This document shows positions 36,503 through 61,260 of a stretch of DNA of 64,000 nucleotides, piece by piece. Numbering within the stretch: the first letter of the stretch is position 1; each line of letters opens with the position of its first letter. The notes under the pieces are model-generated. The model saw only the letters and a list, made by a program, of their open reading frames with translations. It was not told the DNA's origin and ran no database searches. The position numbers were made by a program, and so were the translations under genes. The DNA is taken from assembly GCA_964187785.1 (NCBI GenBank), contig OZ076409.1, forward strand, positions 8,620,001-8,684,000, in the 5' to 3' direction. This DNA is from Amphiscolops sp. MND2022 (Eukaryota).

Positions 36503-39500
36503 ATGTTCCATTACTCGGGCGATCTTTGGGAAAAGTGCTGTGAATGGATGGAGTTGATAGACTTTACGGCCCAGCAAAACTATCCAATTCCCTCCGTTTC
36601 CAAATCGAAGAACGAGAAAGAATTTCAAAGTGCTCTCAAAGATGGTTCAGCCCTTTGCTATTTACTGCACCACATCGACCCCGATTCCATTGACAAGAAA
36701 AATATTCGGCTCAACTGTTCAGCGTCGCGAGATCAATCCATCCACAATGCCCAAATGTTTTTGTCATCATGCGAGGACTATTACATGCAAGGGTGTTAAA
36801 ATAATAATTGTCGGGAAAATAATTAGCAATAAATAAATTGCAATTATTCATTTTTGACCAAAAGCAACACAACTTATTTAATTTTGAAGGCAATTATTGT
36901 AGCAAAATAGTTTTTGGTGTAGTTTACGCGTATGCGTAGAAATCCTAATGGGATTACCGATTTTGGAACAAAAATTGTTGCCAACCAATCTCTAAGCCGA
37001 GGTGTTCTTGCGCTCAAACAGGCCTTTTTGGGATGTACAAACTGCTTGTGAGATGAGAAACCAAGAGGCTGACAAAATCAATGATTTCGGGGGATGAAAG
37101 AATTCAATGAAAGAATTCTGGGGAAACAATTGCGCAATAATTAATTGTTTTCGGTTTGACAATAATTGAATCATGGGTTCAATAATTTATTGTTTCTCCT
37201 GAATTCAACACTCTTGATTGCATGACACTCACTTGTGACCTGTTCGAAGCATCGATTCTGTACGAGTGCCAACAACTGGACGCTGTGTTTTTGGCTCTGA
37301 GTTCTCTCAGCAAGACGATGCGATTCGCGGAAGTCATGCTCGAGAAATGCCACAATGTCCCTATTTTTGAAATACACGAGGAATTCAATGGTAAATGATT
37401 TGGCGGAAAAATGGTATTCTTGGAGTACTGTTTTCCATCTCGGAAAAGGATGAGAACCAATTTGCGTTGTTGATTTTTAGGATTCGAAAAAAATGCACTC
37501 GTACCTTTTCCCCTGACCTTTCAATGAAAATTACATGTTTCTGAAAAACTGTCCATAAGATTTCTATAAAATTTAGCACAGTCATTCTACACCCAAAGGA
37601 GGCTCCTACGTGCGCAATGGCATCAAAAGTTTATGACTAGGACTTGAGAAAGATTTAGTCCAAAAATGACCGAAAAACTGCCATTTTTTGGTCTTTTTTC
37701 GATTTTGTCAAAATCTGTCTATACGATTCGAACGAAATTCTCTTACAATCATTCTACGCCGCATTAGGGTCCTATGTGTGCAATGACATGAAAATCGTAT
37801 GACTTGGATCTGAGAAAGAATGCCAAAGATAGTCCAAAATAATGACCAAATGAAAATAAAGGACGTAATTTGTTTTCCAATATTTTAATCCGTTTCCGAC
37901 TCTTTTACCGCACATGCGGCTCCGGTTCCAAAAGCAAAAATCTACCTTTGTTGAAAGTTTGAAGACTAAATTACTGACTCTAATCTAAAATTCACTCAAA
38001 TTTCAATGGAGTTTTTGATTCACATTTTGCTTTTAAACACGTTTTTAGTCTGCGCATTTTTTATGTTCCCCTCTTCGGGATTTCCGTGTTTCAACTTTAA
38101 GATCGACAATTTTGAGCTTAGAGGGTCCTCAATCCCCGGCTTTTCGGCACTGTGCAATTTTTTAGCGATTTTTGATTTATTTTTTCAAAAATCACCATTT
38201 CAATTTTTGACGTTTCAAGTTTAAAAAGCGTTTTATGGATCCTTTGGATAATTTCCGCACCGAACTATTTCCAAAAAAATTGAGTCACCCTGAGCATAAT
38301 TTAAGGGCAGAGTTTTTGAGTCTTTAGTGGGGCGCCGACTTTAGAAGGTCTCGTCTTGTTAATCCTTCAAACAAGCAAACGCTTTCAAATATCTTTACCG
38401 CCAAACAAACAGATGAAGGAGAGGATCACATGTACCATCTAGCTGGATCCCACACCGAATCCACTTTCAATTCGGATTACATGGCATGCACACAGTTTGA
38501 GCTTTCGACGGATGACAGTGTCTACGACAGCATGATGAGTCAGTATCTCAGCACGACTCTTGCCAACACATCTGCCTCAGTCGACTCCTCGGCATCTTCT
38601 TCGATCTACGTCACCATGTCTCTATCTGACCATTCCAATGTCACGGGTTCGAACCCCATTCTCGCCGAATTATTAGAGAAGGAATCGGGTTTTATTCAGC
38701 TTCTATCGGAACTCCTTCAACTTTACAAAATAAAACTGATTAATATATCGAGTGAACATTTCGACCCAATTTTTTGCGGTGACTTGTTTGACAACATGAA
38801 GGATCTTCACGAAGAAATGAGGAGGCAAATGAATGTTGCGGGTTCGACTTCAAAGGATGAAATTGAAAATGTGTGCGATGTCTTTCAGAAAAACAAAATC
38901 AAGATAGCATCCGTGTATTCCAAATATTTCACACAGATCGATTCCAGTGTTTCAAAGTTGCAACAACTTCTGGACGAGAATCCCTTTCTCCGAGATATTT
39001 TTGAGCGCATTAAAAAAGAGGCATTTGAAGATTCTCAGTGTAAAGCATTCGATCTTTGTGTTGTGCTTCGGGTTCCGTTTCAACATGTTCTGAGGTACCA
39101 ATTGTTTTTTGATCGTTTATGTGAGAAGGTTATTCCTTCAGTAGCTCCTGGAAGCAATACTCGGCTGGTCAACACCTTGGAAAAGACAGCGGAAATGATG
39201 AAAGACTTGAATGAACATTTTAACGAGTGCAAACGCAACATGGAATCTTTACAGTATCTCTCCGTCAAGTTCAAAGATGTATTAGATTCCAGTGATCCCG
39301 AAGAAGAAGCGAAATCTTTTGGGAAATTTCTGAAAGAAGAAGAATTTCCGAAAGTAAAAGTGGGGAAATCATTTTGGAGTAAAACCGATGTACTTCTTTT
39401 CCAGAAAGCTGTCGTGTTTCACAATAAAACTAAACATCTAGTGCTTAAATTAGACACAAGTGTGGTAGATACGCACAGTAAACCAAATGTTATGACCTTT

Positions 39501-40505
39501 AGAGGAGATTCAGATTACAGAACAGTGGAATTGGTCATCAAAAATCAAGATTCATTCGATACGTGGAAAAATTTGGTTGACAAAGTTTTGGAAGTAAACT
39601 GGCTTAAAGAAAGCAATCACCACAAAGTAACTCTGGAATCTTTCGAAGACGTCGCTTTCTGTGTTGTTTCTGGGAAGATCTTGAAGGGTAGTTACAGTCA
39701 GGGTTACCAATGCTCAAAGTGTAAAGCGTGTTTCCTCGATTTGACAAGTCTCCGAAACTCCAAACCTTGTCAGAGTTCCCCGGCTACTTCTTGCAGCAAT
39801 CTTCCTGCTCTGAGAAGCTTTTTTGAGAACCACAGTTTCACAGAAAACAAAGCCCAAGTCCGCCCAACCTCACCGACTATATGCAAGGATCCTGAAAACA
39901 TAGATCTTACATCTATGACCAACCTTATTCTCGGGAGTCTCGATGAACTCTCAGAGTATCCCTGGTTCTGCCCAATCAAGAACCGAAAAACTTCCTACAA
40001 AGTTTGTTCACTGCTCCCTGAGAACACCTTTTTGGTTCGAAGAAGCGAAAACGATAGAAACTCGGCCGCTCTCATGATCAAACATAAAACGAAAGTTCAC
40101 AATATGAAGATCACTGTTTGGCCTCAAACTGGTTGTTGCGGGCTGACACAACATTTGACCTTCTCAAGTATCCCAAAACTGGTCGAGAACTTCCAAACCA
40201 ATTCTCTTTCAACCTGCATCCCAGAATTACAGACGACTCTCATTTTTCCATTCAAGGAAGGCTTGAAAAGGATGAAAAGCTCGTTGGATTCTTCAAAACA
40301 TCAGAGTTTAGCTTTTTTGAAGAGATCAGCCTCCGTTTGTATAGAGAACAATTGTTGTGAGTTGCAACCGGGTGACATTGTGATTGTTCAGTTGCAGCAA
40401 AATGATCCCAAATCTTCCAGAGTTGAAGGGTTTGTCGAAACAAAAGCAGGATCTTTCAAATCACATGAATTTTATCTTCCGGCTGACATTCTTGAACCAA
40501 TTTAG
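36503..40505 (+). CDS. vav: Vav-like Rho/Rac guanine nucleotide exchange factor (CH - acidic - DH - PH - C1 - SH2 - SH3-like), divergent
   Basis: Segments 36503-36787 (DLWEKCCEWM...ALKDGSALCYLL, CH), 37225-37390 (DLFEA...VFLALSSLS) and 38413-40505. The last has DH (VPFQHVLRYQLFF), C1 (GYQCSKC) and SH2 (YPWF...TFLVRRS...FSSIPKLVENFQ). Intron 37391-38412 is GT-AG, phase 1. Confidence 0.85.
36788..37216. mobile_element. hAT-type MITE inserted in the vav CH-domain coding sequence
   Basis: TIR CAAGGGTGTT / AACACTCTTG; TSD ATTACATG / ATTGCATG. Confidence 0.8.
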
Positions 40506-40944: not shown

Positions 40945-41434
40945 AAGAAGTTAAATGCAATGCCAGTGAACAAATTTTGATTGATCTCGTCGACGTTTGA
41001 TTGGTTAATCTGAATTAGTGCTTGTACGAACTATAGCAATTTTGGCTGACGCGTTTTGTAACCAAATACGTCTGGCTGTCACGCTGACAAGTTTTTCCCT
41101 TTTTTTCGCCAGATCACAGAGTAGACGATTAATTATCCACTTTTTACAGACTTAACACTTAAAATCTAAAACATACCCTTTTGTGATTTTCATATTTTTT
41201 TGATCTAAAAAACCAAATGATATCAACTGGTCCCTATTTGGGAGTTTTTTCGGCACTGTGCGACTTTTTTCGAACATTTTTAAACATGATAAAAACATGC
41301 ACAAACGAGCTATCAGCACGTGTCATCATCCAAAATTTTTGTTGCAAAAGAGTCAGTTTTAGTCTAAATTAGCAAAGTACTTGAATCGTCCAAAGGTGCT
41401 AGGAAAAAAGTTAACATGTCACTTTGATTGAACA

Positions 41435-42130
41435 TTTAACAATCGCTTTTTACTAGATTTCTATTCGTTTCAACTTTCGATGCGCAGGGCGATTGTTGGG
41501 GTAAATGGATATATTTTGTTTTTAAAAGTGACTAGTGGATATTTCTAAAAAAAGAACAAAAAAAAGTCTATAAGAAAATGAAAACTCAATTTTAAAGAAC
41601 GATATTTACTGACCAAAATTATTAAGTAACAAACAGCAACTTACATTTGGCTTGATGGATGATGTTATGGCTGTGATAGTTTTCGGTTTCTGAAGATACT
41701 TCTGCAGGTGCAAGAAACGAATAAATAATTAATCCTGCACTGGGTAAGAGTGGGGCTTTTGATGAATGTTAATAAAGGAGCAGCTGAATTGGGCGCATAA
41801 AATAATAAGAGCAGCTTTAAATAAGGGGCAGCTGAAATAAGGGGGCGGCTGAACAATTGGGAAGCTGAATCAGACTCAACAAAATATTTATTACTGCGAG
41901 GCAGCTGGATTTTTAGAAACGACCACAAGGCTTTTTAAAATGCACACTGCCTGGAACTGCCTGGATAATTGTTTGTAAAATATTTTAAAAAAGTAAAATG
42001 TGCACAACAATTGTTACAATGTATATTAAGCAACGCTGTTAATATTTTTCAATATATAGATGTGTATATGTAACGTGTATGAAGTCTCACATGTATTAAA
42101 AAATTCATTTCCTGTTTACTGTCCGCTATA
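41435..42130 (-). repeat. 3' LTR
   Basis: Direct repeat of 53482-54177; same length, no difference seen by eye. Confidence 0.95.
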
Positions 42131-42145
42131 CTACCCTCCCCCGTG
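42131..42145 (-). other. Polypurine tract
   Basis: Minus strand CACGGGGGAGGGTAG abuts the 3' LTR. Confidence 0.85.
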
Positions 42146-42170: not shown

Positions 42171-43241
42171 TTACTCGAACCAGTCCGACATGTGTGAGTC
42201 ACAATCCTTGCAGGTCCGTAAGTTACGACGGGCCCGGCGAACACCTGTCATACCGCAACACTGGTATACTTTGTTGAGCCGGGGATCCGTGAGGACGTTT
42301 TTCGCTTCCTTAAGGCAGGGGACCAGTTGGGACACTTCGGCTGGGATGGAAGGGTTCTTGTCGGGGTGTACGAGTCTTAAAAGATGTCTAGCATGACGAT
42401 TGATCTTTTCGACATCGGCTGTAGGTGGCAGGCCAAGTATATGAAAGAATATGTTCTCATCTGCGAAATCGAGTTCAGGAGTATATGTGGAAAGTTGATA
42501 AATTAGCATGTCAGTGGTTAGATGGGCATCTGAAACCCTGTTGGCGGCTAGTTTAAGGTTAGAGAGTTCTTCGCTTTGCTGGAGACTGTGTTGCAGCAAA
42601 GAGCTGTTTTCGTCGCTGAGGGCACTGAGGCGCTTCTTCAGGGCGGCTATTTCACTGTCTTTTTCGGCGAGGGCGACGACTTGAGAAGCAATGTTGGTTT
42701 GTAAACCAGCGAGCTCGACTTTGCTTCATGAATTTCCTTTTCCTTTGCCTTCCGAAGAGTCATTTCCTCGCAAAGGAGGTCGAACGTATGCTCACACTCG
42801 ATGCGAGCCTTATTAGCTGCTGCACGGGCTTCTTCAAAACCCTTATTGAGTTCGCCAACCGAAGAAAACTCTGATACTAAGAGTTCCATGCTGTCGTCAG
42901 CGTCGAGGGACGCATCCACTGCTACATCGCAGGTGTCCACTATTAATTTAGGGGGTACTGGCGAGCAATCACAGATTGCTGGAGGGGGAGGGCAGTCCAC
43001 TTCCACGCTCAGGCTGTTACTGCTTGGAGGAGGAAGCCAGATTTCCGTAGCTGGTCGAGCAAAGCAACGATTACTTGAATTAATTTTTTGTAGCACAACA
43101 GTTTGTGTAGCGGGGTTTATTCTCTTGATACGATAATCGTCTTTGTCCAACAAGCGGACTACATATCCCTCTGCCAGGGGCTGCACGCGGCCGCTGCTGA
43201 GGAGGAAGGGCGCTGGAACTGGAGCTGCTGGAAACTGGAAC
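42171..43241 (-). CDS. Accessory coiled-coil + J-domain (DnaJ, HPD) protein, split by a 1-nt frameshift near 42720
   Basis: Upstream frame runs to ...EKEIHEAK. The -1 frame opens at 42725 as KVELAGLQ... (coiled coil), then FFHILGL...LVHPDKNP...EAKNVLTDP..Y and a CKDC tail. Acceptor TTTCAG|G at 43242/43241. Confidence 0.75.
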
Positions 43242-43362
43242 CTGAAACAACAAAAAAACTGATTGCACCGATTACACTTTGTACGGAAATCCTACTTAGG
43301 ATGCGGAAACGCATCTGCTAGACACTAATTGTTTAAACAATTAGGAAAAAACTTAATTGCGG

Positions 43363-43737
43363 ACACGGAAACGTGTGTTGTGAGGCACTAGTTGCGTAGC
43401 GAAGCAACTAGGAGAAAAAGACAGCTTAGCGAAAAGAGATTCACCACGGAAACGTGTATCAATACAGGCGCTAGTTGCGTAGTGAAGCAACTAGGAAGGA
43501 AAAGACAATCTAAGGGAAAGTAACGGAACACGGAAACGTGTAAAACAGGCACTAGCTGCGTAATAAAGCAACTAGGAAGGAAAGGCAACCTAGAGGAACG
43601 TAAGTAACACGGAAACGTGTAGAACAGGCACTAGCTGCGTAGTAAAGCAACTAGGAAGGAAAGGCAACCTAGAGGAACGTAAGTAACACGGAAACGTGTA
43701 GAACAGGCACTAGCTGCGTAGGAAAGCATCTAGGAAG
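43363..43737. repeat. Tandem array of about five 80-bp double-hairpin units
   Basis: Each unit has CACG-GAAA-CGTG and CTAG(T/C)TGC-N8-GCAACTAG. Confidence 0.85.
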
Positions 43738-46152
43738 GGAAATCCTAAGTAGTTGATAAAGAAGCTGAAATTGACAGTGAGACAGAAATGTGCTAAACAA
43801 TTAAATGATGTCGAAGTAGACTCATAAGTAGGCGCACTAATATTAGGATAAACACGTGGTGGAAGTGTAGGGGCGTTGGGTGCAGTGTAATTAGATGGTT
43901 TCGGTTCAGCTTGACGAATGGTTTCGCGAGCCAGCAAAATCAGTGCGCGGAATTCAGCGTCCGTCAAATACAAAAATGGAGAATTGGTCAAATCATACTC
44001 CGCGGTAATTGATTCGACTATATTAATGAATCTACCGGAAGTAGCCCGGAAAAAGCGTTGAGGATTGGTAAAAAGACGCTGCCAATGACGTCTAAACAAA
44101 GTAAAACTTATAGAAAATGTTAAAATAGACATTGTAATGGACAATGACGAAAGTAAAAAAGCAGTACGGGTGGGTAAATATGACTGTAAAGCTGCTGATG
44201 TGGCCGGCGAGATCGAAGAATAATACTTAGCGATTGGCTCTGTCAGTTGATCTAGAGTTTCCGGCGACATGTGTTGGACGTCAGGTAGTTCGGCTAGTTC
44301 CATTCGTAGACTGCCAAGAACTGACTGACGAGCTTCACTCGTAGAATATGCCTGAAATTCGGCGCTACCAATGGCGGGTACATGCGCGAAGACTTGATTC
44401 AAAGACGGTGTCAGCTCAATCGACGCAAGAAAAGGCTCCGGCCGGGTCTCGCAAAAATCCATGTCAGGATGAAGAACCAGTTCACCCTGGTTGAAAGACA
44501 GTGTACTCGAACAGCTAGGGCGTATGACACACGCCTGACAGGTGATAGTAGAGATAGAAAGGCCGTCAATTTGGCTATCGTTTTTGAATTTGAGGGTGGG
44601 AGACCGTGATATGACGTGGTACATCCCATCCGCCAAATAAAAAGCCTGAGGAGCGTCGGGTAAAAGTACTGCGCGGACTTCGCAATTGCGTAAGGCGGGA
44701 ACATCGTAGTTATAGAACAAGGATCCTAAGCAAAGAAGAGTTTCATCGGTTGTTGTTGAGAAGCCTTTTCTACATAATTTGATACGATTGTTGCCCGAAC
44801 ATTGCTGCAGCGTGTTAGCACCGAGCTCTGCAAATCTACTATTGTCAGTAGATACTGCCAAAAAAGGGTTCGCAAAATTGAAGAGCGACGCAGTTTTCTG
44901 GTCATTGTTGGGCTGATACAGAGGCGTGGCATGGTAAATGTCAAACGTCGACGACTTTGAATTCATTGGGATCCCAAGAATGACAGATATACCACGTGGT
45001 ATCAAAGTTACTTCGAGTACTAATTGTATCTCATAGTATATTGCCTCAAAACCAGGTCGAATAGCTGGGGACAGTTTGGTGCCTCGCTTTACTTCGTCAT
45101 CTGCTAAGTCTTTGACAATTTGCGCCACTTGTTGAGGCAGAAGAAACTGAGGTGTGATGTAGCCACTAGCTAACGAGGAAATGGTGGAGTAGAGCGAAAT
45201 GCGGTAAGCGTAAAACGCTGCACGGTACGACTTGAGATGAGTGTAAAGTGTCCCTAGCTGATAGACGTAATTTCGCAAGAATTGCTGAAGGCTAAGGTGA
45301 CGAATAATCACTCTATCACACTCAAGGCTAGTCGCAGCCAAGTAGCGAGTAGCATTAACTAGGTAAAACTCCATTTGTTGGAAGCGGAGACCGACACTTT
45401 CTTTTAGTTTCTGGACACTTTCCTGGGTCTGTTTAATCTCGTTTCCTAGAAGGAAGAAATTCTTGTCGTTTCGAGTTTGAACACGCTGCAGTGTATCAAC
45501 TATTTCTTGCTGTGTGCTCATTATGCGTTCCACGTCGCGACTCAGATCTTCATTGGTGTGACAGAGATTAAATATAGAAAGCGCACTACAAGCGGCGTCT
45601 TTGATTGGTTCACCCAAGACCATTCCGGCACCTGCTGCGATTGCAGCAATAGCGGCAATTGCTCGACGTGGTCGTGCGATGTCATCAGATTGTCTAACAG
45701 CTGGTGGAATGAAAGAATTCACAACTTCCAGAAGAGTGTCTTCCTCTTGTTGAGCTGCTGCCAACTCTGTTTGCAGGAAATTGACTCTTGTCACAAGTTG
45801 TTGCAGGAGGAGGTCATAGGTGTCATTAACGTCTGTAAACTTGCAGTTTGTATTGATGTACATACCTCCGATGCTTCGAGGGGCTGTCTGGAAGGCATTG
45901 ATCATGTTAATGGCATTGGTAATGTTGATTAGAGGCATCTTGGGGAAGGGAGAGAACACGCGGACTTTGCTTTCGCTCTCCGAGGTAACAGCTTGGTATT
46001 TGAACACAAACGCTGCACCTTTCTTGAATACGGGTTTTTCCAGGTCATCGTTGAGGTGTGTTGTGAACTGCACATCCGCAAAGATCAGGACCGACCAACG
46101 GACGAACAGAAAGAGAAACCAGAAATGTTGAGAGTTTGGAAAGTAGGAAATC
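43710..46152 (-). CDS. env: Envelope glycoprotein, class I F-type fusion protein
   Basis: In-frame hydrophobic signal FWFLFLFVRWSVLIFA upstream of the called ORF. Furin site RPRR is followed by fusion peptide AIAAIAAIAAGAGMVLG, a heptad region, a Cys-rich block and TM AFLLSSLSITMSILTFSISFTLF. Confidence 0.85.
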
Positions 46153-46396
46153 CTGAAAAACAGAGGAGCCTTGTTAGGCCATTGGTGATGGGAAATGACC
46201 TGGAGAGAGAAATAAAATGCAACTATTTGAAGTTATTTCTTTTTTGTATAGTTTTTGGAACGTTTGGTGGAATGTGGCATGCTGTGCAGTGGCGGCGAGT
46301 TGAAATCGGTTAGTTCAGAAGGTATTGAGGAATTACACAGGGGTTCCGCCAATCGCTGTGTGCGTGTACTTGCGCGGAGATTGTATGGTCTGTTTA

Positions 46397-47140
46397 TCAT
46401 ATCTCAAAACTGAACAGCAGCGTTTTCAACGATGTTTCGGGATTCGTTTGACAAAGGTGAATGGGATGCTGGTGCTTGACGATAGCTTGGGTTGTCGACT
46501 GAGAAGTTGCGGGAGTGGCCATCGTCTGAACTCCAGGAGATTGAAAAGATTGGGAATGCTGATTACCGGAGAGGAAAGCGGGAGTTCGGGTTTGGGTCGG
46601 TGACTGAGCATTGTGGCTAGTTAATTGTGGCGTTGGAGTAGTCTGGTGGTTCAGGTGAGCAGGGCTGTGGAGATTCACAGGCTGCAGTGGTGGCTGTTGA
46701 AAATGCATGCAGCATCGATGCGAGGTTTCAGGTGGTGTGGTGTTCAAGTCGTTATTCCGTGTTGGGACATTGGAGTGAACTGGTTTTGTGGGCTGGGTTA
46801 AGCTAGTATTTCGAGTAGGCACATTTGAAGTAGCTGGTTTTTCGCAAAAAGGTTTCAACCTATCGTAGTGAACGATCAGCTCTTTGGACGTAGACAATTC
46901 TCTTATCTTGTATGTGACCTCATTGAAACAGTCAAGTATCACATATGGACCACGCCATGGGTTGTGGAACTTGGTTGTTTGGCCAACTGGGACCACTGGT
47001 GTGTGGAGCAACACTTTCTGTCCCTGTTCGTAGGTAGGACCATGGATCTTCTCGTTGTAAATGGCGTTGCGACGTTTTTGGTTTTTATTAATGTTGGCTC
47101 GCACTAGTTCGAAAGCTCTTTGGAAGGCCAATTTTCGATT
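46397..47140 (-). CDS. Integrase C-terminal (GPY/F) segment, in frame with pol after an internal TAA
   Basis: KFHNPWRGPYVI...VHYDRLKPF; same frame as pol (...TDFV*NRKLAFQ). Confidence 0.85.
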   Translation of the reverse strand, partial: NRKLAFQRAFELVRANINKNQKRRNAIYNEKIHGPTYEQGQKVLLHTPVVPVGQTTKFHNPWRGPYVILDCFNEVTYKIRELSTSKELIVHYDRLKPFCEKPATSNVPTRNTSLTQPTKPVHSNVPTRNNDLNTTPPETSHRCCMHFQQPPLQPVNLHSPAHLNHQTTPTPQLTSHNAQSPTQTRTPAFLSGNQHSQSFQSPGVQTMATPATSQSTTQAIVKHQHPIHLCQTNPETSLKTLLFSFEI

Positions 47141-50100
47141 TTATACAAAATCCGTAGGCGACATTGGTTTTTCGGCTTCAGGTGCAGGGTGCATCAAATC
47201 GATTGGCAAGGAAATTTCTCGCCCATGAACAAGAAATTGAGGCGAATATCCGGTTGATTCATGTACAGATGACCGGTAGGCCATCATTACGGAGGGTAAC
47301 TGTTGGGACCAGTTACTTTGTTCAGCGTTCACGCATTTTGCTAGCATGTTCTGGATTGTTCGATTCATTCGCTCGATCACTGCATTAGACTGGGGCCTAA
47401 AAGCAGTTGTTCTTGTTTTGTCAATGTGAAGGCTTGTCATGAGCGTCTGGAACAACTTGGACTCAAAATTACGTCCTTGATCACTATGTATGCTGTAGGG
47501 GCAACCAAATCGACAGATCCAATGTTCGATAAGAGCGGTAGCCGTTGTTGTAGCTTGCTGATCTGGCAAGGGAATTGCTTCATACCATTTTGTGAAATGA
47601 TCCCCGATCAACAGAATTACTTTGTTTCCATTCGAGGCCGGCAATGGGCCCATGAAATCGATTCCAATGTGGTGAAAGGGATAACTAGCTTTCCACTCTA
47701 CAAGGGAATGACGATGTGTTTTGGGAGGATCCGAGCGTCGCTGACATTCGGAACAACGTTTTATGAAAAGCTTGATATCCTCTTTGAAACCAGGCCACCA
47801 AAAACGCTGTCGAACTTTCTCCATCACCTTGGCTAAACCTAGATGTCCACTGGTAGCGGAAGAGTGCAAGTTTGTTAGGATATGTTCTACCAAGGTACGG
47901 GGAACAATTTGCTGTAGGTACGGAAGTTCACTTCCAACTGGTTCATACCGTCGACAAAGAACGTCATTGGCCAGATATAAACTGTGGAATTGATTGTACA
48001 GCTTCCATGCTAACTCGGGACTTCCTTGTAGGTCGTTATTCCGCGGCACACGACCCCTGCGAACCCATTCTTTTACGATCTTCAGGGCCTCGTCCTCATC
48101 TTGAGCATTGCGGACATCAATGTCCGCATGCACTGGTTCATTATCTTTAGCGGTTTCTACGGGTGGGCCTTCGCTCTCAAGTGAAATTGATGGAGGCAAA
48201 TAAATAGTTATACATACATTGGATCCGTCAAAGACTTCTCGGATGAGTCTGCGAACCAAATCCCAGTCAAGTTTATCATTTCCACAGCCTATTTGAGGCA
48301 TACTAATCTTTAGGACGTCGTTCGTTTCAGCATGGCTACGCATGTGTTCCAGAGAAGCTCGAAGTGAAGTATATGTTGGCTTTTGGTAGTAACGTTCCTT
48401 AGTCAGCAAGTGATACAGGAAACGGCCGTCACCAGGTAATGGTTGTACCCAAAGTGGCACAGTTTGCTTTGATAAGTCCTCTGGATACTGTGCTGGGAAC
48501 TTCCTTTTGAATGATCGGGCTATTCCAGAACTCATTTTAAAATCAGCTGAGATACAGTGAGCTAGGGACTCCGAAGAACTGAACAAATCGCCCTTCACCT
48601 CGCGATACTTGACAATGCCTGTTTCTGTAATGACTAGTTCTTCTTGTAGAGGCTTTTCTTGTGGTTGCTCGTGTTCGAGAAGTTCGCCGGTTTTAACTTT
48701 GCTGTGATTATTAGCTTTTTCCTTGAGTTCAATGATAGCTTGGAGTGGTATTGATGCTGTATCTCTAGGCAATAGGTGAATACTGTAGTTAGATTGTGCG
48801 TTGGGCCATTCCTCGTCATTGTTGCAATTCTTCGTCTTTGTTGCACCTGGGACTCCTGTTCGGCATTCTTGCGTTAATTGGACGGATTCAGTTGGTATTC
48901 TGGACAGACTGTCGGCATGTCCGATGGATTTGCCTGGTCTATGTTGCACTTCGTAATCAAAAGCTGCTAGTTTTTCAATCCAACGTGCAATGAGACCGTC
49001 GGGGTCCTTGAAATTGTGTAACCAGCGAAGTGCACTGTGGTCTGTGACAATTTTGAATTTTCTACCGAGTAGGTAATGTCGGAAGTACCGAGTGAAATGG
49101 ACCATTGCGAGAAGTTCTCGTTTCGTCGCTGAGTACTTTGATTGGGATTTGGAGAATGCCTTTGATGCATAGCAAATAGCACGTTCCTGGCCATTTTGTA
49201 CTTGGGCTAGAACGGCTCCCATTGCTAGTTGGCTGGCATCCGTGTAGAGGATGAAAGGATCTTCCATTGTTGGAAAGGCTAAAATTGGTGTTGTGAGGAG
49301 TCGTGCTTTTAGATCTTCAAACGCTTGCTCTGCCTCAGTTGTCCACTTAAAAGGCGAGTTGGTTTCACTCGCTTTATGCAAGGGACGAGCGATTTCAGCG
49401 AAGTTTTTGATGTAACGTCTATAGTAGGAACAAAGGCCCAAGAATGACTTCACCTGGGTCTGGTTAATTGGGACCGGAAACTCTTTAACGGCTGCAATTT
49501 TTGTGGGATCAACTTGAAGGCCTTCTTTGCTGATGACATGGCCCAAGAAGTGGACTTTGGTGCGGAAAAACTCGCATTTTAGGGGGTTTATTTTCAAGTT
49601 GGCTTGTCTAAATCTGCCTAGAACTTCCCTGACTCGTTCTAAGTGTTCCTCCGGGGAAGCGGCAAAGATGATACAATCGTCAAGGTAGGGGACTGTTGTT
49701 TTCCAGATAAGTTTCGCCAAAACGATTTCCATTAAATTTTGGAACGTCGGTGGACTGTTTGTGAGTCCCATCGGCATTACAAGCCATTTGAAGGAACCAA
49801 AAGGTGTGCTGAAAGCAGTATAATCTTGACTTGATTCGTCTAAGGGCAGCTGATAAAATCCCCAACTCATGTCTATAGTGGAAAAGACTGAACTTCCATC
49901 TAGAGTGTCAAAAATTTCTTCAATCGAAGGGATTGGCCAACAAGACTTGATTGTTTGACTATTCAATTGTCTGTAGTCAATGACGAGGCGGAGTTTTCCG
50001 TTTTTCTTCGGGACTAGCATGGCGGGTGCACTGTAAGGGCTGTGACAAGGAGCTATTAACTTCTTGTCCAGGAACGCGTCTAATTTCTCTTGGAGATCCT

Positions 50101-51148
50101 GTTTATAGTGGAGGGGCATTCTGCGATTCGGAATTTTAATCGGCTTTGATCCGGGGTATACGTCTATTTTGTGTGTTGTAGCTTCGCAACGACCAATGTC
50201 CCATTGGTTTTGCGAAAACACATCTTCGAATTCGTAAACAAGTTCTGCGAATTTCTGTTTTATTTTGAATGGAATTTCCGGATCAACTCCATCCACTACA
50301 TTTTTCAAATCGTACGATTCGTCCTTTTCGTCTATTTTAGACTTCAAGCTTTTTGTTTCGGTTACAACGTTTTGTATGGGTAAATCAGGGATTGCTTCTG
50401 AAGTACCCAAAGTTGTTTTCTCATACAAGATCAGTGGCTCTTCTCCAGAATTTTCGATCGTCACCGGGATGTTTTCCTCAGCAAAGTTGAACAAAATACT
50501 TGGTGCCACTGCTTCTTTTGAGCCATCGAACCGTTCGTGCGGCTGGAAAATTGCTACACCCTCATTCAATGGGCGTTTCCAATCCTTGATGTGCGCTGGC
50601 ACAATCATTGTATGTCGTGGTGGTACCGAAACTGTCTCGGACACCACCACCCTGAACACAGTTGTCTTAGCATCTGTGAGCTGACGATGATACAGGGGGA
50701 CTGTCGTCTTTTCATCCAGACGCAGAATATCTTGGGAAAACAACGGGTCGCATTTATGAGTTTTGAGGAAGTCTAAGCCGAGTAGACAGTCAGCTTCTGC
50801 TTGCTCCAGAACGTGAAACGAATGTTCGTAATGTCTCGGACCGATTTGCAAAGGTAGTTGCACAATGCCGCATGTTACTATAGGTTGTTTGTTGGCTGCT
50901 ACTAGCTTCGTGTCTGACGGTTTTAGCTCTAATTTCTTCCCGTTCTTCAATTTCCCAAATGCATCAGAACTCAGGCAAGACACACTTGCTCCACTATCAC
51001 ACACAGCCTCAATCACCGTATTAAAAATGGATAATTGGACGAATACACTTCTGTGATCCACCACAGAGTTAAGAGTCTGAATTTGTGGGCCTCGGTTTGT
51101 GGTCTTGTCTGCGCTCTGACCCGCTAGCGTAGACATTTCTAGTTTAAA
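47141..51148 (-). CDS. pol: Pol polyprotein: protease - RT - RNase H - macrodomain - integrase
   Basis: DSGA protease; LRLVIDYR, MPMGL and YLDD (RT); YTDAS and TDHSAL (RNase H); GDLF...GCGND (macrodomain); HHCC zinc finger and D,D,E integrase core. Confidence 0.95.
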   Translation of the reverse strand, partial: FKLEMSTLAGQSADKTTNRGPQIQTLNSVVDHRSVFVQLSIFNTVIEAVCDSGASVSCLSSDAFGKLKNGKKLELKPSDTKLVAANKQPIVTCGIVQLPLQIGPRHYEHSFHVLEQAEADCLLGLDFLKTHKCDPLFSQDILRLDEKTTVPLYHRQLTDAKTTVFRVVVSETVSVPPRHTMIVPAHIKDWKRPLNEGVAIFQPHERFDGSKEAVAPSILFNFAEENIPVTIENSGEEPLILYEKTTLGTSEAIPDLPIQNVVTETKSLKSKIDEKDESYDLKNVVDGVDPEIPFKIKQKFAELVYEFEDVFSQNQWDIGRCEATTHKIDVYPGSKPIKIPNRRMPLHYKQDLQEKLDAFLDKKLIAPCHSPYSAPAMLVPKKNGKLRLVIDYRQLNSQTIKSCWPIPSIEEIFDTLDGSSVFSTIDMSWGFYQLPLDESSQDYTAFSTPFGSFKWLVMPMGLTNSPPTFQNLMEIVLAKLIWKTTVPYLDDCIIFAASPEEHLERVREVLGRFRQANLKINPLKCEFFRTKVHFLGHVISKEGLQVDPTKIAAVKEFPVPINQTQVKSFLGLCSYYRRYIKNFAEIARPLHKASETNSPFKWTTEAEQAFEDLKARLLTTPILAFPTMEDPFILYTDASQLAMGAVLAQVQNGQERAICYASKAFSKSQSKYSATKRELLAMVHFTRYFRHYLLGRKFKIVTDHSALRWLHNFKDPDGLIARWIEKLAAFDYEVQHRPGKSIGHADSLSRIPTESVQLTQECRTGVPGATKTKNCNNDEEWPNAQSNYSIHLLPRDTASIPLQAIIELKEKANNHSKVKTGELLEHEQPQEKPLQEELVITETGIVKYREVKGDLFSSSESLAHCISADFKMSSGIARSFKRKFPAQYPEDLSKQTVPLWVQPLPGDGRFLYHLLTKERYYQKPTYTSLRASLEHMRSHAETNDVLKISMPQIGCGNDKLDWDLVRRLIREVFDGSNVCITIYLPPSISLESEGPPVETAKDNEPVHADIDVRNAQDEDEALKIVKEWVRRGRVPRNNDLQGSPELAWKLYNQFHSLYLANDVLCRRYEPVGSELPYLQQIVPRTLVEHILTNLHSSATSGHLGLAKVMEKVRQRFWWPGFKEDIKLFIKRCSECQRRSDPPKTHRHSLVEWKASYPFHHIGIDFMGPLPASNGNKVILLIGDHFTKWYEAIPLPDQQATTTATALIEHWICRFGCPYSIHSDQGRNFESKLFQTLMTSLHIDKTRTTAFRPQSNAVIERMNRTIQNMLAKCVNAEQSNWSQQLPSVMMAYRSSVHESTGYSPQFLVHGREISLPIDLMHPAPEAEKPMSPTDFV
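51106..51148 (-). promoter_or_regulatory. -1 programmed ribosomal frameshift signal
   Basis: T TTA AAC in the gag frame directly before TAG, a 6-nt spacer, then stem TGTCTaCGCT/AGCGcAGACA. Confidence 0.8.
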
Positions 51149-52359
51149 TGTTCCCTTTTGGGAGCCTTGCATTCATTCTGGAAATGACCGACTCTCAAAC
51201 AATTGAAACAAGCTTTGCACTCCTTCGTTGTATGATTTTTGCGTGTGCAACGCTCGCACGGCTTCCGATTGTTTTGCGTGTTGTTATTGTTGCCTTGTTT
51301 CTTGGGATGGGGGGAATCTTGGCGATACTGTTGTTTTTGTGTTTTGTCAGATCTGCCTGCGTTATTTGGTCGTTCGCGTCCTTGTGACGACTGAAATCGT
51401 ACTGACTGGCCACTCCGATTGGAATCATTACTCTGCGATCTCGAGTGATCATTTCTGTTTGATGATTTTGTGTCTCGTCGTTGATGGAAATCATTATTGG
51501 ACCGATACGTTGACGACTGAAGTTCAGTTTGTAATGATCGAACAAAATCAGCCATAATTTTGGACGCTGATGGCTCCGCTTCAGAAGAAGTACTAACTCG
51601 GTTAACTGTTTGAGCGGCTTGGGGGTTTCCGTTCTCAATCTCCAGGAACGAATTCAGCTCCATAGCCAAGGACAAAGCATCATCCGCTGTGGCTAGCTTG
51701 GCTTTTCGGAGCTCCCATCGAAGCGTTTTGTCGCTTAACCCTTCAATGAAGCACGTCAGAACTACCGGATCAATCATAGCAGGATGATCCCGATATGCAC
51801 GACGCGCCAGCGTCCGAACGTCACATAGGAAAGATGAAATATCTTGGTTGGGTTGCTGCTTCGCGGCTTTCAATCTTGCTTTCAGAATATCGCCATTAGT
51901 TGTGTAATTCTGGCGGAACGCGTCAACGAGCATATCGAAGTTAGTTTGTTGTGATGGAGACAACGTAGTGTAGAAATGCAAAGCATTTTCTCTCAATCGC
52001 AACGCAAAATAATGTGGTCTGTTATCGTGTGCGTTCGAATACCAGCCTGAGAGAAGTGCTGCTGTGTTAAATTGTTGCAGGTAATCTTCGAAATCACCTT
52101 TTCCTGTGAAAGACTCTGGCATCAGACATGACGGAAGCGGGGCTATGTATGGAACACTTGTTGGGTTTTGTCTACCGCCAGGCAGAGTGAAAAAGGAAGC
52201 TGTTGGGGTTGTACTAGTGTTAGGAGTTGTAGAACCCACGGTAGGTGCTTGTGCTGGTGCTTGGGAGCTACTTGCACCACCACTAGTAACTGGGGTTGTA
52301 GTGGTATTGGTTACCGCTGTCGAGGTGGCCGTTGTGGGGGTGCTTGGTTGAGTGCTCAT
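51139..52359 (-). CDS. gag: Gag (406 aa from the first ATG)
   Basis: PESFTG...F..Y capsid-like region; two CX2CX4HX4C knuckles (CERCTRKNHTTKEC, CFNCLRVGHFQNEC). Confidence 0.9.
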   Translation of the reverse strand: MSTQPSTPTTATSTAVTNTTTTPVTSGGASSSQAPAQAPTVGSTTPNTSTTPTASFFTLPGGRQNPTSVPYIAPLPSCLMPESFTGKGDFEDYLQQFNTAALLSGWYSNAHDNRPHYFALRLRENALHFYTTLSPSQQTNFDMLVDAFRQNYTTNGDILKARLKAAKQQPNQDISSFLCDVRTLARRAYRDHPAMIDPVVLTCFIEGLSDKTLRWELRKAKLATADDALSLAMELNSFLEIENGNPQAAQTVNRVSTSSEAEPSASKIMADFVRSLQTELQSSTYRSNNDFHQRRDTKSSNRNDHSRSQSNDSNRSGQSVRFQSSQGRERPNNAGRSDKTQKQQYRQDSPHPKKQGNNNNTQNNRKPCERCTRKNHTTKECKACFNCLRVGHFQNECKAPKREHLN

Positions 52360-52400
52360 TGTATTTGAACGCTTAAAGTCTACGTTAGGTCTAGAACGTT

Positions 52401-52799
52401 TCACATGCGATCCATTCGCAGCGGACCAAAATTGAGACTAGGTGGTTTGCAGTCGGGATAGACCAAATAGAATGGATTCGTTACGTGTATTGCTAGAAAT
52501 TGAATATGAGAAGCCCAAATATTGGATAATTGAGGGAAAAAGGACGCACAGGAAGCTTTTACACTTGCATTGTTATCAACACGACCATACGGGAAAGTTG
52601 AACAAACGTTTCGATGTTGCCAATTGTGGATAGCCTCAAGACGCAAATGAATCGACAGTTCATGTGCCGTAAAACGACGTTCTGGTTGATGCGATAATGG
52701 AATTTTGAAAAGTTTCACTTGGCAGAAGTAGCAAGGAATAACGAAGTTTTGAGGCGGTGTGTTTGACAAAACGGAAACAGGTATGCTAAAAGTATACAT
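52401..52799 (-). CDS. Pre-gag accessory ORF 2 (132 aa, CYFC and His motifs)
   Basis: ATG-initiated; packed 10 nt after ORF 1 and ending 41 nt before the gag ATG. Confidence 0.5.
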   Translation of the reverse strand: MYTFSIPVSVLSNTPPQNFVIPCYFCQVKLFKIPLSHQPERRFTAHELSIHLRLEAIHNWQHRNVCSTFPYGRVDNNASVKASCASFFPQLSNIWASHIQFLAIHVTNPFYLVYPDCKPPSLNFGPLRMDRM

Positions 52800-53462: not shown

Positions 53463-53480
53463 ATCCCACTCCTGTCACCA
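53463..53480 (-). other. Primer binding site, probably tRNA-Leu
   Basis: TGGTGACAGGAGTGGGAT, 1 nt from the 5' LTR; resembles the complement of the metazoan tRNA-Leu 3' end (..ATCCCACTCCTGACACCA) with one difference. Confidence 0.8.
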
Positions 53481-53481
53481 T

Positions 53482-54177
53482 TTTAACAATCGCTTTTTAC
53501 TAGATTTCTATTCGTTTCAACTTTCGATGCGCAGGGCGATTGTTGGGGTAAATGGATATATTTTGTTTTTAAAAGTGACTAGTGGATATTTCTAAAAAAA
53601 GAACAAAAAAAAGTCTATAAGAAAATGAAAACTCAATTTTAAAGAACGATATTTACTGACCAAAATTATTAAGTAACAAACAGCAACTTACATTTGGCTT
53701 GATGGATGATGTTATGGCTGTGATAGTTTTCGGTTTCTGAAGATACTTCTGCAGGTGCAAGAAACGAATAAATAATTAATCCTGCACTGGGTAAGAGTGG
53801 GGCTTTTGATGAATGTTAATAAAGGAGCAGCTGAATTGGGCGCATAAAATAATAAGAGCAGCTTTAAATAAGGGGCAGCTGAAATAAGGGGGCGGCTGAA
53901 CAATTGGGAAGCTGAATCAGACTCAACAAAATATTTATTACTGCGAGGCAGCTGGATTTTTAGAAACGACCACAAGGCTTTTTAAAATGCACACTGCCTG
54001 GAACTGCCTGGATAATTGTTTGTAAAATATTTTAAAAAAGTAAAATGTGCACAACAATTGTTACAATGTATATTAAGCAACGCTGTTAATATTTTTCAAT
54101 ATATAGATGTGTATATGTAACGTGTATGAAGTCTCACATGTATTAAAAAATTCATTTCCTGTTTACTGTCCGCTATA
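53482..54177 (-). repeat. 5' LTR
   Basis: Direct repeat of 41435-42130; minus-strand AATAAA at 53934-53939; consensus donor AT|GTAAGT at 53686-53693. Confidence 0.95.
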
Positions 54178-54505
54178 AACATATCATTTGAAATTGGCAT
54201 CGTATTCAACTGAGGATGAAGGTAATGGCTTCACGGTTCAAATCACTCTGCGTGTAAGCGAAACTTTCAGATTTTAAATATGGTATTTTGGGAGAATAAG
54301 AACTTCTTGCTTTCCTTCATTCCAATGTCTTTCAAACTTCCCAACTTAAAATAATCCTTATAGTTCACATGCATTGCAAAATGTACCTTTGTCATCAAAT
54401 GTTTCTTTTATCCAGGTACCATTTCAGCTCTGTTTTGTTCATCATAGAGATAGCGAATATTGTTGTGAATTTAATTTTAGTGATTTATTACCAGGGGGTT
54501 ACGAT

Positions 54506-54927
54506 CAGTGAATTAGGTTTTCCCAAAAAATGCGCTTATCGCTTTTTGCGCTTATGACTGGCACGCTTACGCTTAAGCGGTGCTTTTTGGAAGAAAACGC
54601 TGGGTCAGCGAATTTTGGTTCTGAAAAGCTGCAGTTTTTTGAAAAACATTACGAACTTTTGAAAATTTCGATCGGTTACTTCCTTATCTCAACAAACTAC
54701 CACCACCAGAGACAAATTTTTTTATTGTACTAGTGTCGGGTGAAATTCTCAGTACAAAAAACTTGCCACTGTTAGAGTTGGGCATTTTTTGTAACCAAAA
54801 TAGCTATAATTTCTGACCAATTAGATAAGCGCAAATTTCAGTCGTCGCTTTCGCTGTCGGGGCTTATCCGGATATTACGTCGCTTTCGCTTTTTTTGCGC
54901 TTTGGCTACAAGCGACCTAATTCACTG
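54506..54927. mobile_element. MITE with CAGTGAATTAGGT TIR
   Basis: Perfect 13-bp TIR; TSD not directly adjacent on the left. Confidence 0.6.
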
Positions 54928-55102
54928 CCAGGGGGTCAAAATTAGAAAGGGTACCGTTAGTTTCCAGACAAATAACTGGGAGGTCTTGATTACAGAGAAC
55001 AGAGAGGGGGAGGGGTTAACTGCCAAAGTGTTTAGTTGCCAAACACTATCAAACTTGCTCTCAAGCTTTTAAAAATAATAATGATTGAGATTCAGTGATA
55101 TA

Positions 55103-55570
55103 CAGTACTGTGATTAAGAAATCGTCCCCATGTGACGTTCTCAGCCAATCAAAATTGTTCATTTGGTCTCTCTTTCAATTCTGATTGGCGCATGAAGAGA
55201 AATTCACGTAAATTTAGGAAATTTTACCTTTTGAGCCTGATATTTCGGAAACGGTTGATCATTTTTGAAATCAAAATATATCTATCGATTCAGTAGATTT
55301 TTGGGAGTTAAATGAGCTTAAAATTTGTCAAAAAATCTGTGGATAAAACGGTCAAAAATAAGAAAAACGGCAAAAATTCCCAATTTTGCTGAAAATCAGC
55401 TATTTGTAACTTTCTCAATTTTTGTCTCAGAAATTTTTTTAAAAATACTAATGTAAACTAGATGAAATTCTAAGAAACTTTTATTTCTGATGTTTTTCAA
55501 AATTTCCAACCGATTTTGAGAAAATCGAGCCTAAAAACGTCCGGGGGACATTTCCTTAATCACAGTACTT
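55103..55570. mobile_element. Tc1/mariner-type MITE
   Basis: TIR of about 27 bp, CAGTACTGTGATTAAG...GTCCCC, flanked by TA on both sides. Confidence 0.7.
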
Positions 55571-57499
55571 TATAAGGAGGTTTACTTTCTGGGAAGTCTA
55601 AATTTTTGGATTCTGGCAGTTCTAAAGAGTCCCCCATTTGTTCTTTTTTTTCATAATTGAAAAATTACCGGATAAGTTTGTGTCTTCTGAATCTATGGCA
55701 ATGGTTAGCAAAACGCTAAGTTTAAACATGGAGAAGTTAGTTTATAACTCGCGTCTCATTTTCGTATAAATAGGACAGTAATGCGTTTATATATAATGTA
55801 TCATATTTGTAATATATTTCACCAGCAGTGTGTATGTGTGTAAAAATTTCGAAATGTATATTTAAAAAATAGTTCTGAAATACTTTTGTAATGATTTGTA
55901 ACCATCTAATAGTTAATGTTCTTATGTTTTCTTTTCTACTGAGTTAACAGAGATTTTCTATGACGTGTTGACTTTGAATCAGTGAAATACAGATCAGCAT
56001 TTTTTTCCTTTTCTAAAAATACGTTTTTTTTCTGTGATGTACGTTGCTTTTTGTGGTGTAGTTCACAGCATTACCTCTAATATTTTAGTCGGCGCTCTAT
56101 GAAATAGAGACAATTTCATGCCTAATGCCAAAATTCTACTTTTCTGCAACTTGGCCAACTCATAGGAAGGGTCCTCTCTTTCATTTTTTGACAGAGTTCG
56201 TTGAATTAAAACGAGATTTATGGGTTATTTTCGGCTCTATGAGACTTTTTTGGAAAGTTTTTCAATTTCCCAAAAGGGTCCCCTTGTATTTTTGGATACT
56301 TTCAGTAATAGGCCTTCTTAAGCTCAAAGGGTCCCTCCCCATTATTGTTTTTCGGCACTGTGCGATTGATGTTTTTTCAAAAAAGATTCCTTGAAGTCGT
56401 GAAGTACTTTTGCGCTTTTCTCACTGTGAGGTTGGAAATTGTTCAAAAAGAATTACTTAACCCTAATTAACCTGGTGGTACTTTAAAGCAGCCATTTTTT
56501 CAGTTTCTGATTCCTTTTGCCAGCAGCCCATATTCTCTAGCACATTTTTGTTTCAACCGTTCATTAGTACCTAGACTGATTTGAATGGCACAAGCATAAG
56601 GAAGAGTAATATGTCTCCAAAACTGAGAAAAATGAGTTTTTCGCACAAAAAATTGTTACTTTTTTTTCTAAATTTCAGTTTTTTTTTGGCGAAACCAAAC
56701 CCCTACACTTGCAAAACAAGTTATTACACAACAAGTCTCAATTATATTCTGTTGTTACTATAAGCCCCCGCGCAGCGGCACTACCGGGAAAAGAAACTAA
56801 AATTCTGAAGGAGGGGGTGCGCGGCGACAGGGGCTCACCTGGCCTGAATGAAAGCCCAATACCAGACCTTTCAAACGCGCTATAGTTCATTTCTCTGGTA
56901 CGCGTAGTTGTGGAGATATTAATTATTTAAAATTTTCAATCCGAATTTTTGAATTTTTGCAAAAATGCCCAGGTCCATTAGGGTTAAAGAGTTGAAGTAC
57001 TTTGTGCATTTTGAGTGTTGAACAGAGCGCCGACTTACGAAGTTTCCTTCACGACTTTCCTTTATACACAATCTTTTTGAGTTCAAACGTTTCTTCCGTA
57101 TGCTCGTATTCAAAAGGTTCTATCAGTAAACTGTTGTCTCCAGTTGTCGAAATATCGCGTCGTCTCTCGCTTAGTTTGCATTTTGTTGAATATCGCAAAA
57201 GTTGGTCACATTTTGTTAAATCCTCTGTATTCTTTTAGAGATTCATTTGTCATAGTTCAATTGATTCTTGTTCCTGCATTTATACGGCCTTTTCCTTGCT
57301 ATTCTCAGATTTCAATGAAAATTGAAATCGTTTCAATCTCAAACCACGATTGTTCGAAAATTTTGGTGTAAATTCATCAAGTGTAGTGTAAAAACAATTC
57401 TGCCTTCCATATTTCGAGTTTCATTGGTATACCGTATTTCTTCGAATACAGACCGCGACTTGTAAGTTTTTTCCATAGTGATTTCTCGGCCTGTATTTG

Positions 57500-57966
57500 A
57501 ACAAGCCGGGACCGGCCCAAGTCGGCGCCATATCCAAGGCTCAAAAATAGCAAAAGGACATCAAAGTTTCAAAGTATTCTCTTCTACAGCACTAAAATTT
57601 TTTTTTAAAAAGTCTCACAACGCCAAAAAAAATTGAAAGGGGAGACCCTTTGGGATTTTTCTATACCCAGGCTGTCGCAAAACCCAAAAAAATTGAAGGG
57701 GGGACCCTTTGGGGAAAATTTTTTTCCGAAAAAAAGTCTCGCAATGCCGAAAAAACTGAAAGGGGGGACCCTTTGGTCTCGTCCGGCATTGTATGTTATG
57801 CGGGAAACTTTTTGGTTCTGTTCCCTGGACCAACAGGTGAAATTTGAAATTTTGTAGAACTTTTGGTAGAACTATTTTGGTCAGTTCAGGTGGTCTTAAA
57901 AAAAACACTGACGAAAAGCCATGTCTATAGTCGACTCTTTTCTCTAGAAAAGCGCCGACTAAAAAA
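57500..57966 (-). mobile_element. HINE-like element copy
   Basis: Both termini present; similar to 12190-12592. Confidence 0.75.
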
Positions 57967-60269: not shown

Positions 60270-61260
60270 ATGTCTCAAAGAAGAGTATTTTCTTCAGAGT
60301 AGCTATAGTGATACCTTTTTATAAGGAAGGATCCAGTAATGAATTTGAAAACTATCGACCAATTGCTCTTCTGCCACCAATTGCTAAAGTCTTTGAACGC
60401 GTTTCGTATAAAAAAGATGATAAGTTACATACTGAAATACAATTTGATAATTGCCAAACAATTTGGATTTTTTCAGAAACGCAAGACAGTTGATGCGATT
60501 GCTTCGGTTATCGAAGAAATAAAATCCTGCTTAGATAGAAAAACACCTTCGTGTTGCCTAATTGATCTAAAGAAAGCATTTGATACAATAAATCATTCAA
60601 TATTACTTGAGAAATTGGATAATTACGGCTTCAGAGGACCTAATTAGCATATACGTAAGTCCTATCTCAGTATAGTACTCAATATGTACAAGTCGGTGCA
60701 CAAATGTCATCTTCACTTGATACTGAGTGTGGCGTTCCCTAAGGGTCTGTTTTAGGGCCATTGTGCTTTATTATATACGTAAACGATTTACCTTTGTGTG
60801 CGGATTCAAATTTCACCCTGTTCACTGATGACACAACTATATCAGAGAAAATTCCATCATTTGATCCCACGAAATTGAATGATCCATAGAGAAAATTGAT
60901 AGAAGGATGAAAGAGAAGAAACTTAAGTGCAATGTGAGTGAATCTACGGCCGTAGTATTTGATAATAACGTACCCTCTCAATTGAGTTTTGGACTTCATA
61001 ATATTTTGGTAAAACCGCAACTCAAGTACTTAGGCATTGTTATTCATGAAAAGTTGACATTCAGTGATCATTGTGCTTGAGTTAAAAACAAATTACACTG
61101 TTCTGAGAGCGGGAACGTTCTTACCAAGATCTCATTGCTGTCCTATTATAAAACGCTCGTAAACCCAATTGTTCAATTCGGCGTCCTAATATTTGGTTGT
61201 ACGCCATTCGAATCTTGATCCCGTTCTGAAAATCCGAAAAGGAATAGTCAGATCGATATG
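60270..61260 (+). pseudogene. Decayed LINE (CR1/L2/Jockey-like) reverse transcriptase
   Basis: YRPIALL..AKVFE, QFGF, DLKKAFDTINH.ILL.KL, GVP*GSVLGP, F(T)DDT and KYLG motifs, with stops and frameshifts. Confidence 0.85.

Follow-up and report, generated by a model that had tools for sequence, protein, structure and literature searches.

The window, a 64,000-nucleotide stretch of DNA from Amphiscolops sp. MND2022, contained an LTR retroelement on the minus strand with the following features (positions are those of the window).

54177 to 41435, minus strand: whole LTR element, 12,743 bp
41431..41434, second copy 54178-54181: 4-bp target-site duplication
53482..54177, minus strand: 5' LTR, 696 bp, with termini TA..AA rather than TG..CA
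53463..53480, minus strand: primer binding site, which we take to be of the tRNA-Leu type
51139..52437, minus strand: gag frame with Retrotrans_gag domain and CCHC knuckle; overlaps pol, which is read in a different frame
47141..51172, minus strand: pol frame, terminating at an in-frame stop in the window copy
about 51049-50750, minus strand: protease in pol (Pfam)
50014-49532, minus strand: reverse transcriptase (RT) in pol (Pfam)
49267-48959, minus strand: RNase H in pol, Pol residues 636-738 (Pfam)
48197..48616, minus strand: TARG1/OARD1-class macrodomain in pol, Pol residues about 853-992
47905-47732, minus strand: integrase zinc finger in pol, Pol residues 1090-1147 (Pfam)
47680-47393, minus strand: integrase core in pol (Pfam)
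46397..47140, minus strand: pol frame continued past the stop, with integrase C-terminal domain PF22938; pol is broken in the window copy
43710..46232, minus strand: env-like frame, with a basic RPRR site and then a hydrophobic stretch
42171..43291, minus strand: fourth ORF (DnaJ domain, HPD motif), split between two frames in the window copy
42131..42142, minus strand: polypurine tract
41435..42130, minus strand: 3' LTR, identical to the 5' LTR at 696 of 696 bases

The LTR hallmarks of Metaviridae (Ty3/Gypsy) were present (LTRs, target-site duplication, primer binding site and polypurine tract), with atypical TA..AA termini, and Pfam placed the Pol domains in the Ty3/Gypsy order of protease, RT, RNase H and an H2C2 integrase. 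The identical LTRs, together with the 4-bp duplication, the primer binding site and the polypurine tract, indicated that the insertion is young. TA..AA termini with a 4-bp duplication, where TG..CA termini are usual, were similar in sister subfamilies. No match to the env-like frame was obtained in the Pfam and PDB comparison, and its likeness to a Baculo_F envelope was weak (E 2e-4 in an hmmsearch with a single target, and a probability of 0.6% in hhalign). In elements of the window's clade, hereafter clade A (L026+L027, L024+L025, L042, L044 and L048), env was followed by a fourth ORF whose DnaJ domain, with its HPD motif, is a second host-type domain taken up by these elements. Outside the element, a 725-residue intronless frame on the plus strand (38328-40505), RhoGEF-like with C1 and SH2 parts by eye, ended about 930 bases from the 3' LTR, and an AT-rich composite repeat was dispersed, in many copies and both orientations, through positions 1-41400 and 54200-64000.

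The initial annotation had proposed a TARG1/OARD1-like macrodomain embedded between RNase H and integrase. All the motifs it quoted were found in one minus-strand frame (pol, 51172-47141), and the order of Pfam domains on Pol placed the macrodomain in frame at the proposed position. The motifs and the residues aligned to human TARG1 were located as follows.

48592-48581, minus strand: GDLF motif, pol frame
48568-48518, minus strand: SLAHCISADFKMSSGIA motif, pol frame
48526-48524, minus strand: Gly43 equivalent, by alignment to TARG1
48409-48371, minus strand: LLTKERYYQKPTY motif, pol frame
48400-48398, minus strand: Lys84 equivalent, by alignment to TARG1
48301-48263, minus strand: MPQIGCGNDKLDW motif, pol frame
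48283-48281, minus strand: Gly123 equivalent, by alignment to TARG1
48277-48275, minus strand: Asp125 equivalent, by alignment to TARG1

The cut-out domain scored 24.8 bits against Pfam Macro (cut-off 22), and the whole Pol scored below the cut-off. When PDB sequences were searched, the best five matches were all human C6orf130/TARG1 (E 1-2e-34), followed by DarG at 2e-6. A single-sequence fold was poor (pLDDT 49), and AlphaFold2 was given an alignment of 80 rows instead. The resulting model had a pLDDT of 90; its top Foldseek match was TARG1 4j5r (E 1.2e-16, rmsd 2.0, 47% identity), followed again by DarG, and its fold likeness to human TARG1 gave a TM of 0.82-0.89. Assignment to the MacroD type, to which the macrodomains of most RNA viruses belong, was rejected, as alphavirus domains ranked below TARG1 and DarG in Foldseek at 12-18% identity. 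The sequence and structure comparisons agreed with the proposed class, and the window feature was confirmed as a TARG1/OARD1-class macrodomain by a match far beyond chance.

The catalytic lysine and aspartate, which had been described as apparently retained, aligned with TARG1 Lys84 and Asp125, and the pocket residues Gly43 and Gly123 were also kept. Lys84 and Asp125 are catalytic and required to remove thymidine- or uracil-linked ADP-ribose, and Gly123 is required for ADP-ribose binding, according to the available parts of four sources (PMC8501950, bioRxiv 10.64898/2026.03.31.715305, PMC5928194, PMC8120803). Changes next to the pocket relative to TARG1 were Gly41Ser, Ala42Ser, Arg119Gln and Leu124Asn; the residue beside Asp125 was Asn in the window's family and Leu in 149 of 163 aligned relatives. 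The window domain was basic, with a pI of 9.0.

A macrodomain search of the 1.07-Gb genome gave 989 candidates, 150 of which were scored. Among those scored, 17 were full-length matches at an identity of at least 92%, and seven of these 17 lay in 1646-residue open frames. Sister subfamilies, 70-87% identical in RT, had a common gag-pol-env layout with the macrodomain at the same place. Distribution on the RT tree had been named at the outset as a check on the domain. RT trees were built from fetched elements only, and seven further copies from the RT clade with no listed macrodomain match were fetched; six carried the macrodomain and the seventh ended after RT, placing the domain clade-wide. 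The 923 members of database family P0006 had the same layout as clade A. The domain of P0019 grouped with P0006 and matched the Amphiscolops genome at no more than 62%, so that a second host likely carries clade A.

Between subfamilies, dS/dN of the macrodomain was 0.59/0.091 and 0.26/0.046 in the two pairs with useful dS, with dN/dS at about 0.15-0.18 in pairs whose synonymous sites were unsaturated, and the domain was retained across subfamilies in which these sites were saturated. Within the window's own family the signal was thin: 17 copies held 15 synonymous and 29 non-synonymous variants, a dN/dS of 0.55. Seven of the synonymous and four of the non-synonymous variants were shared (p=0.004), but the adjacent linker was also non-neutral (p=0.013). 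One clade A subfamily carried Lys84Arg, Asp125Glu and Gly43Thr in all five copies examined, an argument against catalysis being needed everywhere.

The strict VNxV motif of the Gag and protease junctions recurred just after RNase H in five of nine clade members, and none of the nine had it between macrodomain and integrase. At the former site the window copy had a loose VNxV variant only, not the strict motif. A looser protease-site pattern also matched just before the integrase zinc finger, and the linkers flanking the macrodomain varied freely in length. The protease-site-like motif after RNase H suggests that the macrodomain stays on the integrase N-terminus.

Other TARG1-carrying families were present in the same genome. 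Family D had a 1853-residue Pol and a PF24664 envelope, with the macrodomain between protease and RT and its residues intact. Family M, with at least 150 matches at 91% or more, had a 1610-residue Pol in which the macrodomain again lay between RNase H and integrase, and both glycine loops were altered in 23 of 23 copies. The M domain, which was not basic (pI 6.5), was still conserved (shared-variant dN/dS 0.14, p=2e-9), less so than the enzymes (p=8e-5), indicating a function without ADP-ribose binding there; a relative of family M had lost the lysine as well. A clade of M and N macrodomains was tolerated (AU p=0.36), so the M domain could not be placed.

Family N was non-autonomous, with 1.94-kb LTRs, a 5-bp duplication and a single frame of about 835 residues encoding Gag-protease-macro; no trace of RT or integrase was found in it. 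From 115 listed matches, 44 copies picked for long open frames were analysed. Their pairwise dN/dS was 0.20 for the macrodomain, 0.24 for the protease and 0.49 for the linker (macrodomain versus linker, p=4e-5), and Lys84, Asp125 and Gly123 were kept in all 44. The N macrodomain nested within clade A (supports 99/97 and 98/95) at 49% to the window's Pol, while the LTR, primer site and Gag of N matched family P, in which Gag, an env-like frame and a Pol of 1420 residues are present and the macrodomain is absent. In a 1.2-kb comparison the LTRs of P and N were 85-86% identical, and identity was 98% across the LTR end and primer binding site; no insert was found at the RNase H-integrase junction of P in 25 spanning matches at 87% or more. 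Since its domain falls in clade A and its LTR, primer site and Gag are like those of P, family N probably depends on P and acquired its macrodomain from clade A. Family M was rejected as the helper of N: the two had a common primer binding site but little other DNA, and it was P that matched the LTR. Thirty of 611 primer-site loci were sampled, comprising 13 of M type, three P, two N, 11 others with N-like LTRs and one of another family, and no macrodomain was found within the 10 kb fetched around the 11 elements with N-like LTRs. Further non-autonomous elements with the N/P LTR and primer site carried Gag and a second ORF without a Pfam match (L335, L337, L338, L340, L341, L343, L344 and L352). 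The macrodomain was also absent from four more distant Gypsy loci. Some successful families thus have no domain or an altered one, indicating that it is not essential.

Beyond this genome, the macrodomain had retroelement domains next to it in two of 80 metagenome loci. In L256 the arrangement was RT-RNase H-macro-integrase together with a Baculo_F envelope, and L236 combined Gag with protease-macro. The TARG1 domain also occurs in insect-type errantiviruses of other hosts. A search of representative proteins gave nine of 143 new proteins with such neighbouring domains. In P0227 and P0300 the macrodomain was C-terminal to integrase; a snail element, in a cluster named Nucella lapillus, had an integrase-RT-RNase H-macro Pol. 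Separately from these nine, P0016, a macrodomain followed by a retroviral protease, nested among teleost OARD1. None of the 80 loci on viral contigs had retroelement domains beside the macrodomain. When a single clade of 19 element-borne domains was imposed on a 51-row tree (about 148 alignment columns, excluding five later-added proteins), it was rejected (AU p=1e-4), which means more than one capture, the exact number not being fixed on about 148 columns. Nine of ten tabulated element-borne domains, the window's included, kept Gly43, Lys84, Gly123 and Asp125.

TARG1-like sequences were also observed outside LTR elements. A TARG1 gene on a 124-kb viral contig (L143, 3001-3414) nested among teleost OARD1, which suggests capture by a fish DNA virus. 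BFVD matches comprised a TARG1-like fold in Kadipiro virus VP8 (39% identity) and others in polyproteins of negev-, virga- and flavi-like viruses of insects. In other organisms TARG1 was fused to NADAR, DNA ligase III, PNKP, TatD or uracil-DNA glycosylase (P0233, P0239, P0263, P0268, P0270, P0273, P0321, L254), fusions that fit a role in nucleic-acid repair. A 1186-residue frame (L266, 4-3561) combined an endonuclease/exonuclease/phosphatase domain with a macrodomain and is possibly a non-LTR element.

Two TARG1-like units of the host lay within about 13 kb of each other (L035 4557-5501, and L113), one intronless and the other with an intron of ~6.7 kb. The intron-split gene grouped with the L236 metagenome macrodomain (98/94). 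Its grouping with the window's clade was weak, appearing in one quick tree (SH-aLRT 86) and absent from two others, so that the host's own TARG1 genes are at most a possible source of the window domain. The host genome also had 32 PARP matches. Five of eight long PARP-containing frames fetched were SF1 helicase-PARP fusions (L135-L138, L140), intronless and 1800-2100 residues long; three of them matched ZNFX1 and four contained two PARP stretches. Helicases of this kind sense foreign RNA, and these fusions are a candidate expanded RNA-sensing defence family; their link to the elements described here is a lead only.

The reading we favour, with slightly more confidence than doubt, is that the window domain is an active eraser, packaged in the particle, by which the element's RNA, cDNA or proteins are freed of ADP-ribose. 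The in-frame fusion to Pol would carry the domain into the particle, and as the element is reverse transcribed and integrated, ADP-ribose added by the host would be stripped from its RNA, nascent cDNA or proteins. Protease would cut after RNase H, releasing a macro-integrase fusion. The main substrate would be base-linked ADP-ribose on single-stranded nucleic acid, the writers would be host PARPs such as the helicase-PARP fusions, and catalysis itself is predicted. Removal of base-linked ADP-ribose sets TARG1 apart from other erasers, and such marks would block RT. Both the purifying selection and the repeated captures are consistent with a function that protects against ADP-ribosylation. The host has TARG1 genes of its own, so it is hard to see why an element would need another, unless the host enzymes cannot reach the inside of the particle. 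The initial annotation had the domain packaged with Pol to protect cDNA or the integration complex; packaging agrees with the in-frame fusion, but the limit on targets was too narrow. Family N, without RT or integrase, keeps an intact domain under purifying selection, which argues against a role confined to cDNA or the integration complex and indicates action in the particle or on RNA too.

The same conservation in N without an integrase weighs against the proposal that the domain is a PAR reader or local eraser on integrase, steering it to PARylated chromatin in the manner of a chromodomain or clearing PARP1 signals at the integration gap for repair. The predicted fusion to the integrase N-terminus speaks for such tethering, as do P0227 and P0300, which carry the domain C-terminal to integrase at the usual chromodomain position; PMC5928194 also describes human TARG1 as a PAR binder that is drawn to sites of DNA damage. 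However, the domains of family D (protease-macro-RT) and of the snail element (C-terminal to RNase H, closing an integrase-RT-RNase H Pol) need not stay with integrase, and we consider this reading unlikely. We regard as quite unlikely a general RNA-binding or structural spacer role in the particle with catalysis incidental: the catalytic pair and pocket glycines were kept in most independent captures and in all 44 N copies, and the altered domain of M was not basic, even though human TARG1 binds RNA without its pocket (PMC5928194, same part), the window domain is basic and pocket-altered versions are under purifying selection in M and one clade A subfamily.

An action outside the particle, by which mono-ADP-ribose on host proteins would be erased and the antiviral response damped, has a precedent in coronavirus and alphavirus macrodomains (PMC7729036, in the part available). 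TARG1-like folds in insect RNA viruses are in keeping with this, and N fuses the domain to Gag without a frameshift, so that it would be made in large amounts. However, Ty3/Gypsy Pol is produced in small amounts, after a frame change, and its processing takes place inside the particle, and Pol, where the window domain lies, is a poor place for a bulk antagonist; this explanation is distinctly improbable. That a host mRNA fragment was copied into Pol and tolerated as a neutral passenger in a flexible linker is scarcely credible. Many families are without the domain and the surrounding linkers are of free length, but the purifying selection, the retention across subfamilies saturated at synonymous sites and the several independent captures stand against it, and the selection tests largely refute it.

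The favoured eraser reading can be extended to a wider and more tentative proposal, which we think rather unlikely. Animals would ADP-ribosylate bases of LTR-retrotransposon RNA and cDNA, here through the expanded RNA-helicase-PARP fusions, and Ty3/Gypsy elements would answer by repeated TARG1 capture at four or more polyprotein positions; N would have taken the clade A enzyme and would supply the particles of its macrodomain-less helper in a parasite-helper trade. On the sequence evidence, the TARG1-class macrodomain in the window Pol is real, conserved and repeatedly captured. It is a new accessory domain for Ty3/Gypsy Pol, mostly missed by Pfam scoring in full-length Pol, and in family N selection maintains a captured enzyme in a non-autonomous element. 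Repeated capture of an eraser would suggest retroelements as a natural target of base-linked ADP-ribosylation, which bears on its natural writers and purpose in animals. One genome supplies matched sets of intact, altered and absent domains together with candidate helicase-PARP writers.

Macrodomains in retroelements were known before from fish, and the position in Ty3/Gypsy Pol appears to be new. Macro domain ORFs can be present in epsilon-like endogenous retroviruses of teleost fish (Basta 2009, as cited in PMC4977317). These viruses resemble the window element as retroelements with a captured macrodomain; they differ in being Retroviridae of fish rather than Ty3/Gypsy and represent a separate capture. 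P0016 may be of this kind. Envelope-carrying Ty3/Gypsy elements (errantiviruses, Metaviridae; PMC13524379) share the gag-pol-env layout, the protease-RT-RNase H-integrase order, LTRs and primer binding site, whereas the window element adds the TARG1 domain and the DnaJ ORF. That paper sorts RNase H-integrase bridges into RNase H, mini and pseudo-RNase H domains and 'Other'; no macrodomain is named in what was available of its main text and seven supplementary files, where the 'Other' and outlier classes could hide one. TARG1-like homologues have been noted in viral genomes, with retrotransposons unmentioned in the available part of PMC4245714, and the corresponding parts of PMC4695847, PMC9040795 and PMC7729036 contain nothing on TARG1 in retroelement Pol. 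Our search of openly readable papers on retroelement macrodomains gave none that describes the TARG1 domain within a Ty3/Gypsy Pol; subscription papers, Repbase notes and bioRxiv supplements, which lay outside it, may contain a mention. Such fusions may also appear in domain surveys of NAD-using enzymes.

Compared with human TARG1/OARD1/C6orf130 (PDB 4j5r, 2eee, 2l8r), the window domain had the same fold, about 47% identity, and the same Lys84/Asp125, Gly43 and Gly123, but it is intronless, lies inside a retroelement Pol and is known here from sequence and a model. DarG strips DNA of base-linked ADP-ribose, and TARG1/DarG homologues occurred in 58 phage records. DarG and the phage TARG1-DarG-like proteins are of the same structural class (Foldseek E 3e-10); however, identity to DarG was about 22%, and DarG acts in a bacterial toxin-antitoxin context whereas the window element has no toxin partner. 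Coronavirus and alphavirus macrodomains are likewise embedded in a polyprotein and proposed to counter host PARPs, but they are MacroD-type, 12-16% identical and different in mechanism. The dUTPase of some retroviruses is an optional template-cleaning enzyme found at different Pol junctions, and the role of TARG1 in Pol would resemble it in being optional and inserted at different Pol junctions.
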